Source: Mizuhopecten yessoensis (taxonomy: Eukaryota). From it: a stretch of 64,000 nt of DNA. The translations under genes were made by a program, and so were the position numbers. Shown piece after piece: positions 4,101 through 10,100 of this stretch. The notes under the pieces are model-generated. The model ran no database searches and was not told the DNA's origin. It saw only the letters and a list, made by a program, of their open reading frames with translations. The stretch spans positions 1,417,215-1,481,214 of the forward strand of contig NW_018408742.1 in assembly GCF_002113885.1 (NCBI RefSeq), read 5' to 3'. Every line of letters begins with the position of its first letter. Positions within the stretch are counted from its first letter, which is position 1.

Positions 4101-7100
4101 ATAGGTTTTCTGTAATATTGACATTCAGTCTTCACATTAACAACATTCTCATATTAATTGGAACGGGGGGGGGGGGGGGGGGGCCAAATTAATATGAGAA
4201 TGATGTTAATGTTAAGACTGAATGCAAAAAAAAAGATAGAAAATGGCATGGACTCAATACTTCAAAGATAAATGAATTCTTGCAAGCTTGGAACCCAAGT
4301 TTTGAAAAGGTTTTCTCTAACACTGCTTTGATACCATCTCCCCAAAACTAAATACATGTACAAAATTCAAGATCAACCAAACAACCAACAAATAATTCTG
4401 ACGATGACGCTATGTGTGTTGTGACAAGATGAACACGTACCCCGAGTTTTGTGACTGAGCAGCAGGAAGATAGATGTTCTCAAAGAAGTGTGTAGATGCC
4501 TTGTCCCACAGACGCTGGGTAAATGCATCCTCCCTGGGTGGAACATCAAACAGAAAATGTTTAAAATGCGAAAAAATATAGCGCATTTAGTACAGATATA
4601 TTTTTTCACCATATCTACATCAAACAAAATTAATGTCAAACTTATTGCATTAATTAGCACTTCTTCACTAGAAAATTCTGTTAAAAATTATCTAAATGTA
4701 ATAAGTCTTAATTGGATATGTCAAGACATTTTTTTCTTATTTTCAATCATTAAGACAAACCTGGATACCTTTCCTTGGGTCATGTTCATATAATTAACTT
4801 TGCTTTACCCTTGGTATAAGAGAAGTGTAAAATAGAGAATTTCTGTTGTCTTCAGGAGTGAACGTGAAATGTTTTGACCCCTACATACCATTCCTTGGGT
4901 GTGACCTGGCTGAGGTTGATGATTTCATCCAGGATCTCACCCCGCGCCTTGTCAAATAGTTCATCCTGTGAGTAACAAAAAAACATGAATCAAGAAAACA
5001 TTGTAAACCAACTTTTTTTGTTAAAAATTTAAGAAACTTGAGTGGTGAATACCTCTGAAAATTTGTGTAATGTCAGATTATTTAGTAAAAGGGAACCATG
5101 AAACTAAAACTAGATATAGTGTGATACCTATAGGGCTTCATACAATATTTCAATCTCAAACTTGAAGCATAAGAACAAATATTCCAATAGAATTTTATCA
5201 TAGGAAATAAGAAATCTCAATAAAGTTTGAGTAAGAAACCATACATTTGATTTCTGGACGGAGAAACGCATCATGATATGCATAAAAGAAAGACATTGTG
5301 ATGTGTATTGTATCCTACTGTTAGTCGTCATTCCAGCATAATTAGGACTGCAGCTACATGTATGACACAAACATTTCTTATTTTTTTCAGACACATAGTT
5401 TTAAGGTAGCGAAGTCAACGTAATCATGTGCAGTGTAGGTGGTTCCAGTACCCCTAACTTGGATACCTAAAGGTGTACAGGGCAGTTGAGGACTAGGGGT
5501 AAGCTATATAATTCATAACACCGCAACAGGTCCTGATGAAGCCAACTGTTTAGGCAAAACCAGTAAACCAGCAATACATTGTAGAATCTTACCCAATCTT
5601 GTTGCGGTTGTATTAATTATATTGATTTTTCAGACACGTTTACATAATAACTTTAACTTCAATACCTTGTAAAATACATATATTATTCTCACACAAACAT
5701 TACACTGTAAAGTTCAATGATATTCCAGTACACAGTTGACCAAACCTGGTCCTGTCATTATTTTCTGAATGTCTAGTTAACTTACCCGGTCAAGCTCCCT
5801 AACACGTGGGAATGTGTTTTTCCATTCTGTTTCAAGATTGAATCTTGTAGCTGGAATGTATAATAAAATATTATACATATTTCTCAACTATCAATTTATT
5901 TCAATGTTGTAGTAAATGTTCAAATGTCTCTAGTTACTTAAGCATAAAATATAAATATCAAAGTAATAGGTTGAAACAGAATATACTTCACAGTCTGAAT
6001 ATTACATCACGACATTTCCGACCTTTGAGCCACAAAATATCTGACCTTTCATCCATGACATTTCTGACCTTTGACCCACAACATGACTGACCTTTGAAGG
6101 CATCCGCCTGCTGCTCCACCGACTCCTTCACCATTTTCCAGAAGAGTTCGGACACAGCCATACTCATGTTCTGTGTGTTCATCTGTGTAGGTTTCAACAC
6201 GCCCTCCCTGTCAAAACATCACACTTACACATAATCTCAAGTATCAGGCAACACCTCTTCTGTTAGAATCAAAATAACTGAGCATTGAATATCAATCTAC
6301 ATCATTATTATTGATTTCCTTGGAGGTATTTTCTTTGGAGGTATTGTCTTTTAATGTGAAAATCTTAATGGTTGTACAACAAGAGAGAGATAACAGAATT
6401 CTTGAAAAAGGAAAATAGTATACTGAAAATGTTAAAATAGCAGTAGGCAGCCTGGCAATGAAACAAGAGGCATTATATTGAGGTATCAATGTACTAGGCA
6501 ATGGGGGAAGAAGTCCCTAAATCTTGTGTAGTGTACCTGACTACAGAAGAGAAAGAGCTGTATACATAGGATTGCATTTGAACCAACCAGTTTGTTGAAG
6601 AAAATTGACAATACAGATAGATCTTGACATCAAGATTGTATATGTCTTTAAAGAGTGTTGGCATTTATAACAGCAGCATTATACAGGAACTTACTTGAAC
6701 AATCTGGAGTTTCTAAAGAAGTTCTCCTCATGGTCCTTGATTGTCTGTATACTGTCATTCTGGTTACCTGTAATGTGTAAAAGTCATCAGAATCAGAAAT
6801 TGTATCCGGTAATGATACCAGACTTTGTCATTCTGGTTACCTGTAATGTGTAAAAGTCATCGGAATCAGAAATTGTATCCGGTAATGATACCAGACTTTG
6901 TCATTCTGGTTACCTGTAATGTGTAAAAGTCATCAGAATCAGAAATTGTATCCAGTAATGATACCAGACTTTGTCATTCTGGTTACCTGTAATGTGTAAA
7001 AGTCATCGGAATCAGAAATTGTATCCGGTAATGATACCAGACTTTGTCATTCTGGTTACCTGTAATGTGTAAAAGTCATCAGAATCAGAAATTGTATCCA

Positions 7101-10100
7101 GTAATGATACCAGACTTTGTCATTCTGGTTACCTGTAATGTGTAAAAGTCATCGGAATCAGAAATTGTATCCAGTAATGATACCAGACTTTGTCATTCTG
7201 GTTACCTGTAATGTGTAAAAGTCATCAGAATCAGAAATTGTATCCGGTAATGATACCAGACTTTGTCATTCTGGTTACCTGTAATGTGTAAAAGTCATCG
7301 GAATCAGAAATTGTATCCGGTAATGATACCAGACTTTGTCATTCTGGTTACCTGTAATGTGTAAAAGTCATCAGAATCAGAAATTGTATCCAGTAATGAT
7401 ACCAGACTTTGTCATTCTGGTTACCTGTAATGTGTAAAAGTCATCGGAATCAAAAATATATCCGGTAACGATACCAGACTTTGTCATTCTGGTTACCTGT
7501 AATGTGTAAAAGTCATCAGAATCAGAAATGGTATTCGGTAATGATACCAGACTTTGTCATTCTGGTTACCTGTAATGTGTAAAAGTCATCGGAATCAAAA
7601 ATATATCTGGTAACGATACCAGATTTTTCTTGAGCTCAATTTGGTGTCTGGAATTTCTAAAATAAACATCAACAGGACGTTTACTCTGTTAAAACCCTTA
7701 CAGATACAATATATAACGACAATTTAAGCTAATGTTAACGAATCATTAAATATATCTTTAACAGAAGAAAATTCAAAAGTTTTTTTTATTAAAGATATCT
7801 ACCTCTTCCAGTCACCACTGCAAAGTACCCTAAAGCTTTCATTGGAAATAGCTGTCCTTCTAGAATGGATTTGATCTGAAATAAAATGTATTATTCCCTA
7901 TAATTCAACAGTCTATGATTTGTTTAATGTATAAAAAATATATACATTTTTTCGATAGATTAATTACCAGTTAGTTAATGATTAAACCAATGTGTTATCT
8001 TTTAGTAGAATTGTGAATTCTAGTTTCCAAAACTCCATTTGCAAATACATAGATCTTCTAACATTCACTACATTTGTAACTACGATGTTGGATAAAGTCC
8101 ATAAAATATAATACTGTAAACAGGGAATTGTTCGCCGCAGCTTAACTTTCGCCTTTTTTATCCTCCCCATTTAGTGTGAATTTTTCATGAGAGCTAATAC
8201 TTTTACACAACATGCAATATATAGTGGTTATCTGTGAAGAGCTATATTAACCCTTGGCGCACTTGGATTTTATTGGCAAAGGGCGAATATTTGACTGAGC
8301 GAAAGCTCCCCAGTATAAACTATAGTGATCCAAATATTAACAGTTCTCGTGAAGGAATTAAATTTGAATTTCCTGTAACTCACACGATCAGGGTTGTACA
8401 GGTTACTTTCTGCCAAGTCAACCTTGGTCAGCACAAATATGGTTCTTCGCCCAGTAGGGTCCATCTGACTGACCAGATCAGTCACATTACTTCTCTCAGC
8501 ATCTAATGAACCATCTACAACAAATGAAATAATACATCACATCTGACTATCAAACCAGACAGATAACATCACTAAAATCAGAGTCTGAATAATTACAGTG
8601 GAATCTGTATAAAGCGACCACCCAAGGAAAATTCAAATCTGGTCGTTAAATAAAAGTGGTCATTTAATATATAACTGAGCAACCGGTGACGTAAAGTTTG
8701 ACCATATTTGTTTAACAGAATTACCTGGATGCATTTGTTCAAAAGGTGGTTAGCTTAATCACAGTTTAACGACATTTTTCAACCTTTGATAATTTCGTCA
8801 ATATTCAAGGTAAAACATCACAATTTTGCATGTAAATTCACTTTACTAAACATTTGATATCTGGAAAGTTGTAACTAATTCAATGGTTGTGTTTTTAAGT
8901 TACTCAAAAATTAAAATTTGCATTAATCACTATTTAAGCTCATCACTTTTTGAACAACTGGGCCCAGATCGACTAATCGAGCGGCTCCTGAAACGGACCA
9001 ACAACCCCAACCCCAACTGCACTTTTACACATGCATATCTAGGTAGTTTAAAACAACATCGTTCAATAGATCAGGTGAATAACTAAACAATAGTTAAATG
9101 ATAATTATGACAGCAAATAATGAGTTGAGAGTGTTTGGGAAGAATTTGGTACCTCCTGCGGTGGTCCAACAGGTTGGTTTACATGTGTTTTTCGTTTATT
9201 TTATGATGGAAACTATATCCAGTTAAAATTTGACCTAGATAAAGCAAACAGCTTTGATGGACTTTCGATTGAGACGTCAGGATGTAGCGCCGTCAGCCAA
9301 CTTTGACGTCATTATAAGAAAGGTCAATGAGTGCACGTGTCCCACATGGTTGTTCCTTATGAGACGACTACAGCTGTGTGGTGCCTACCTTGAATACAAA
9401 GGACTATAGAATTGGGGTTTTCCATGTAACTTCTGACTAGGCGTTTGATGGACTCCTTTGTATCAGGTGCCATCTTTGTAGTAACAGTCTGCAAGGGGAA
9501 ACACATGTAAATAACGGTAATACTTCTATTGATATAAAGCGCAGAGCATGATAAAGTAACAAGTTCCATCAATAGCATCTAAATTGTATGGAGTAACTTT
9601 ATTTCTGTTTGAAAATTTTACCTTTTCATATTCTATAGTATTTTTGGCATGGATACCATTTTCAAGTCTAAAAATAGCGTGGGCGGGTCTTGCAGTGGAT
9701 AGCCTTTCACCAAGGCGATCTGGGTTCATGTCCTTAATAGGGCATGAATAGGTATGGGTTCACCTGCCCACCTATATGTGTTTTTCTGTGGGTGTTCAGG
9801 TTTTCTCCCACAAAGAGGGACTAATATAAGTTGAAATCACTTATTTCATAATTGTTGTAAAATCATTAAAGTTTCTATCTATATTTAAGAAACGAGAACT
9901 TTTTCAGAAGTGATAGTTATATAAAGGGAGACTTTCAACTCTGAATATCTAAAAAGTGGTTTGTATTATGTAGTGTTTCCACTACTCAAAGAATATGTGT
10001 ACATTCTACTAGTACTGCTTTGTATAGTATGGTGCATAGATAATAACACACTTACAGAAATAATACCCGGCAGATCCACAAGTACCATCCTCGGGAGACC

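Follow-up and report, generated by a model that had tools for sequence, protein, structure and literature searches.

How is one 3′ splice site selected when eleven near-perfect copies precede it in the same intron? The question is raised by intron 15 of OPA1 in the bivalve Mizuhopecten yessoensis, where a 73-bp tandem array runs across the acceptor of exon 16. The intron lies in a 64,000-nucleotide stretch of contig NW_018408742.1 (positions 1,417,215 to 1,481,214 of assembly GCF_002113885.1), here called the window, and positions below are those of the window unless stated otherwise. First-AG scanning, exon definition and the rules of nonsense-mediated mRNA decay (NMD) form the textbook background. 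We consider it probable (about 0.74) that the array is a neutral 'mirage' minisatellite of an OPA1 exon-intron border, that its decoys lose by exon definition to the copy nearest a strong downstream donor, and that any mis-spliced RNA would be passed to NMD. Four observations carry this reading: the anatomy of the array, the junctions used in RNA, a premature stop after every decoy, and the many similar arrays found with and without AG/GT (the slash marks the splice junction).

The minus strand of the window is the OPA1 coding strand. The peptide of one exon had matches among human OPA1 structures and showed 100% identity to M. yessoensis OPA1 isoform X2 (P0009), which aligned onto the window exon by exon. 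A sequence-only reading of the window had drawn attention to the acceptor of "exon 16"; this number holds for isoform X2, whereas the same exon is exon 17 in isoform X1, which has an additional 54-nt exon. A 54-nt exon at 14918-14972 is present in X1 and X3 and not in X2. The features concerned are as follows, with donor scores taken from a position weight matrix (PWM).

7803..7875, minus strand: OPA1 coding exon 15 (isoform X2 numbering), 73 nt; a Gly codon starts at its last base, donor GAG/GTAGAT, peptide identical to P0009.
6768..7802, minus strand: intron 15, 1,035 nt, of which the 5′ 175 nt are unique and the remainder is array; exon 15-16 junction in 35 reads.
6753..7627, minus strand: tandem array, 12 x 73 bp; the unit is the last ~58 nt of intron 15 plus the first 15 nt of exon 16, and two variants alternate in interior units.
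6840..7571, minus strand: 11 decoy acceptors, with AG ending at 7570, 7497, 7425, 7352, 7279, 7206, 7133, 7060, 6987, 6914 and 6841 and GT after each.
6695..6767, minus strand: OPA1 coding exon 16, 73 nt, starting with GT; true acceptor AG at 6769-6768.
6689..6694, minus strand: exon 16 donor CAA/GTAAGT; PWM score 9.2, the top donor of the neighbourhood; 30 reads join exon 16 to exon 17.

Tandem Repeats Finder (TRF) reported the array at 6753-7627 with 12.0 copies, 95% matches and a score of 1596. A 35-nt core occurred exactly 12 times on the minus strand at a spacing of 73 (72 once), and 11 of these copies lay upstream of the true acceptor. The eleven AG/GT decoys in 73-bp units described in the sequence-only reading were thereby confirmed, as was the intron length of 1035 nt (exon 15, 7875-7803; intron, 7802-6768; exon 16, 6767-6695). 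All 11/11 decoys retain AG followed by GT, with at least 21 identical upstream bases; identity to the true site covers 15 exon bases, one more than the 14 stated earlier, and 21-247 upstream bases, the longest match being that of copy 6 over 247 nt. The array does dominate the intron, at 860/1,035 nt (83%) and not the earlier figure of about 85%. Its interior is homogenised, with units differing at two or three sites, and two 5′ units carry extra changes. The array is far above chance as a repeat, yet not unusual for this genome; it is a real, well-formed array of an ordinary kind here. Most likely the border was duplicated locally and then expanded by slippage or unequal crossing-over, and the alternating interior variants suggest that expansion may have proceeded in 146-bp steps. 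At the 5′ edge of the array (7605-7624), a perfect 8-bp inverted repeat with a 4-nt loop was seen by eye, and a decayed form of it in each unit; it could have promoted the duplication. Exon 15 and exon 16 are each as long as the repeat period (73), which makes every unit a 73-nt pseudo-exon between AG and the next copy's GT; this equality is probably a coincidence.

The AG/GT geometry has a simple origin. Intron 15 interrupts a Gly codon between bases 1 and 2 and the next codon is Asn, which makes exon 16 begin with GTAAC, and the split phase-1 Gly codon and the Asn were duplicated together with the border. The [RK]G-N motif at the exon 15-16 junction was common among the full-length homologues listed, irrespective of any array. 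A GT start is also frequent among exons in general, at 150/487 in dynein and 23/147 in kinesin/myosin genes. The geometry of the decoys therefore needs no special explanation. As the sequence-only reading stated, joining exon 15 to any copy regenerates GAG/GTAACC; this is not a property of the decoys, however, since the correct junction yields the same sequence.

Acceptor choice was examined in four raw RNA runs from three studies (X19, X20, X22 and X24), of each of which 18-24% was read. The alignment target, 5700-6850, comprised exons 16-18 and one repeat unit standing in for all decoys, and 133 reads aligned. The loose ends at the start of exon 16 were exon 15 in 4, 3, 8 and 20 reads, that is, 35/35 reads and 4/4 runs. 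The exon 15-to-copy junctions that the sequence-only reading had proposed to look for numbered 0/35 in these libraries, which hold almost no pre-mRNA, and depth on the decoy unit (6792-6850) was zero in all four runs, which had almost no intronic reads. Exons 16 and 17 were joined in 30 reads and exons 17 and 18 in 48; no exon 15-to-17 join, that is, skipping of exon 16, was listed in the four runs at a threshold of 3 reads per run. These results indicate that the last, correct copy is the one used in mature RNA and that normal splicing is undisturbed in steady-state RNA, at low depth. At 6754, within the duplicated exon part, a synonymous variant was seen: the other allele was carried by 23/23 X24 reads and 1/4 X19 reads, and the reference base is present in all 11 decoys.

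Upstream signals cannot discriminate the true site, because copy 6 is identical to it for 247 nt. RNA structure was rejected as a discriminator: when three decoys were folded alongside the true site, the true AG was unpaired with a value of 0.11 compared with 0.25-0.41, and positions +1 to +9 were equal. Since neither upstream signals nor folding favours the true AG, the discriminating signal would have to lie downstream. Pairing with the strong exon 16 donor would define an exon of 73 nt at the last copy, compared with 146, 219 and so on up to 875 nt at the decoys, and exon bases 16-73 are present only at the last copy; both differences are proposed to favour it. Any decoy junction that stayed unresolved would meet a premature stop no more than 50 codons after exon 15 begins, and NMD is the predicted fallback that would clear decoy-spliced RNA.

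The PWM, trained on only 23 OPA1 donors, gave 8.6 for the exon 15 donor, 6.7 for the donor regenerated at the junction and 7.4 for the in-array site, with a lower quartile of 6.3 among called donors. The regenerated donor has no G at +5 and is plausible but modest. A unit-internal donor, CTG/GTATCA, which would make 22-nt micro-exons, was rejected at a score of only 2.8.

The frequency of such arrays was determined in two sets of genes whose exons were called with a hidden Markov model and the PWM, and these calls are not RNA-verified. In the kinesin/myosin sample, 175/209 carried-forward exon hits lay inside the DNA examined, and 147 acceptors and 171 donors were callable. The dynein heavy chain sample comprised 16 genes of 50 kb each, with 594 exon hits, 507 adjacent pairs and 487 introns having frame-checked joins; dynein arrays were counted only with at least 2 intact decoys, and the degenerate candidates C4030 and C5587, which had fewer, were dropped. 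Kinase hits, mostly long single exons, stand outside the counts. Arrays of many periods cover 17-18% of the sampled DNA. The 487 dynein introns contained 11 acceptor-spanning and 17 donor-spanning arrays. AG/GT decoys were present in 5/11 of the acceptor-spanning arrays and absent from 6/11, the latter including arrays of 39, 35 and 20 intact AG decoys; under looser counting, AG/GT occurred in 7 of 55 copies of one array classed as lacking it and in 1 of 43 copies of another. Selective loss of AG was not seen in the non-GT arrays, AG being intact in 20/23, 36/43, 54/55, 5/5 and 9/9 copies. Nor were arrays enriched at kinesin/myosin or dynein acceptors, the -60 to 0 bin holding 11 edges against 7-23 per 60-nt bin elsewhere in dynein introns. 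It is therefore apparent from these arrays that AG/GT is not required for an array to be tolerated, and a modest benefit remains compatible with a weak excess of GT. Within the dynein introns, array edges are concentrated in the 60 nt nearest the exons (23 per bin versus about 11). In kinesin/myosin genes, arrays run into the exon at 12/171 donors (13 with one found by eye) and at no acceptor, compared with 0-6 array edges per 60-nt intron bin, and donor-spanning arrays outnumber acceptor-spanning ones in both samples (12-13/171 versus 0/147, and 17 versus 11 of 487); stronger selection against decoy acceptors is possibly the reason.

OPA1 itself has decoy splice sites in 5/29 introns, 2 of acceptor type and 3 of donor type, and 4/29 of its exons start with GT. 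Besides the array in intron 15, these are the following.

L031:7667-8493 (G000:C5415), about 1.5-2.3 kb beyond the window's first base and near the OPA1 3′ end: a second acceptor-spanning array with an 84-bp unit and 9 intact AG/CT decoys.
6008..6097, minus strand: a degenerate 23-bp array across the donor of the exon after exon 16; 2 decoy donors.
2682..3050, minus strand: a 72-bp x 5 array across an OPA1 donor (exon end 2989); 2 intact decoy donors and 2 with GT changed to AT.
618..1022, minus strand: a 44-bp x 9 array across an OPA1 donor (exon end 1012); 7 decoy donors.

The decoys of the second acceptor array carry about 36-50 exon bases, and the exon upstream of them ends in GGG. With CT after AG and GGG before it, no donor can be regenerated at that array. 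Two further observations concern the surrounding DNA. An inverted repeat flanking a run of about 19 C was seen by eye in an OPA1 intron (4140-4220), and many more tandem arrays lie upstream of OPA1 (23141-60922), several of them with units bearing donor-like motifs (for example 26626-26954, 31086-31148 and 31897-32182).

PMC3087553 and PMC3902484 describe amphioxus 'mirage' minisatellites as duplicated exon-intron borders (BflGb6, BflGb9, Adh3, troponin C and PGBD5) with splicing reported as undisturbed. The OPA1 array shares with them a unit that spans the border, retained splice signals, undisturbed normal splicing and a homogenised interior with divergent edge copies; BflGb6 also shares the acceptor-side anatomy, its unit combining the 3′ end of an intron with the 5′ part of an exon (PMC3087553). 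The OPA1 array differs in its bivalve host, its 11 near-perfect decoys and an exon that starts with GT. It likely belongs to the mirage class and extends that class to a bivalve; a search of the open-access literature turned up neither mollusc mirages nor a case of ratchet splicing across tandem copies. The human F7 IVS7 37-bp variable number tandem repeat offers a further parallel. According to PMC1557585, choice among its identical donors depends on position, only the exon-proximal donor being used, the pseudo-sites are functional by mutagenesis and no structural difference was found. Both systems thus have several identical splice sites in a minisatellite, use of the exon-proximal one and no structural discriminator. 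On the other hand, the F7 repeat lies on the donor side and the OPA1 array on the acceptor side, and the function of the pseudo-sites was demonstrated in F7, whereas the OPA1 decoys are candidate sites.

The sequence-only reading had offered two ways past the decoys, a recursive ratchet or else exon definition. The choice of the last copy (35/35 reads) fits the second, and a ratchet is neither needed nor shown. Recursive splice sites and RS-exons are reportedly treated in Sibley 2015 and Blazquez 2018. In a ratchet, exon 15 would first join a decoy, the regenerated GAG/GTAACC would be reused as a donor, and the array would be removed stepwise or as a nested AG/GT-to-AG intron to give normal mRNA. 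We regard this as unlikely. The geometry is self-restoring, any copy-to-copy splice deleting whole units and leaving the same arrangement; AG/GT is kept in all 11 decoys, the regenerated and in-array donors score near the lower quartile of called donors, and GT is weakly in excess among dynein acceptor arrays. The AG/GT that regenerates a donor is shared with recursive sites, and exon 16 itself has RS-exon geometry. Such a mechanism is not required, however, by arrays without AG/GT decoys, namely 6/11 in dynein genes and the second OPA1 array. The true junction creates the same donor, and splicing from it there would leave exon 16 out of the mRNA; the absence of listed 15-to-17 joins stands against 30 reads joining exons 16 and 17; in addition, the regenerated site lacks the +5 G. 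According to PMC8605326 and PMC10156609, ratchet points are abundant in long introns and their donors are generally stronger than those of their RS-exons, some recursive sites lie in shorter introns (PMC10156609), and introns under 1,000 nt predominantly give conventional lariats (PMC10156609); recursive splicing is treated further in PMC13196383. Deposition of the exon junction complex is reported to repress such regenerated donors, as cited in PMC8605326. The OPA1 intron is only 1,035 nt, which is not long and lowers the likelihood of a ratchet, and its 11 sites are 73 nt apart with a modest donor. Tandem AGGT duplications can be spliced out, according to PMC3443670, and the Rogers model derives intron gain from them (PMC3443670; PMC2812944). 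The likeness lies in a duplicated AG/GT segment that is precisely removable between copies; the OPA1 duplication differs in that it spans an existing acceptor, its copies are already intronic and no new intron is needed. The end product of a ratchet is normal mRNA and the runs contain no nascent RNA, so a ratchet is not refuted by the RNA data. It is likewise doubtful that AG/GT mirages correct themselves by re-splicing and that acceptor arrays for this reason survive preferentially before GT-starting exons (6/11 versus 31%).

A regulated poison switch, in which splicing to a decoy would put a premature stop into some transcripts and have them degraded while copy number tunes the OPA1 level, is very unlikely. 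A premature stop does follow from every decoy junction, and in the annotation one isoform draws on a decoy from the second (AG/CT) array; against this, decoys accounted for 0/35 junction reads with zero depth on the unit, and such arrays occur at a background rate in unrelated genes. An assembly error accounting for some or all of the array is more improbable still. Its copies are 95% alike and its structure is known from the assembly, but its diagnostic sites differ in an ordered, alternating pattern, its two 5′ copies have diverged, and arrays of many periods are a common component of the sampled DNA.

Several points weigh against a neutral mirage resolved by exon definition. The end of RefSeq isoform X3 is exactly what the fifth copy of the AG/CT array (L031:8113) encodes, which may mean that decoys are used where no GT exists; the end of X3 reflects either real decoy use or mis-placed reads. 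None of the 147 kinesin/myosin acceptors has a spanning array, compared with 12-13/171 donors, which hints that decoy acceptors can be costly. GT-starting exons lie behind 6/11 dynein acceptor arrays compared with 150/487 (31%) of dynein exons (p=0.09); by decoy geometry the count is 5/11 (p=0.23). Finally, RNA depth is low: 0/35 decoy junctions sets an upper 95% bound of about 8%, about one intronic read in the whole 5700-6850 stretch leaves nascent intermediates invisible in these libraries, and NMD and re-splicing would both hide decoy use.

The counts give first rates for such arrays, about 2% of dynein acceptors and 3-8% of the donors sampled. For annotation, they mean that arrays of this kind can attract false isoforms. 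If the self-correcting reading were true, OPA1, with one AG/GT and one AG/CT array, would contain its own paired test of whether recursive splicing corrects errors in a short intron, and if a ratchet operates, recursive splicing would serve as proofreading through which duplicated acceptors are tolerated in genomes. It would then also bear on how the spliceosome passes over perfect upstream 3′ sites despite first-AG scanning.

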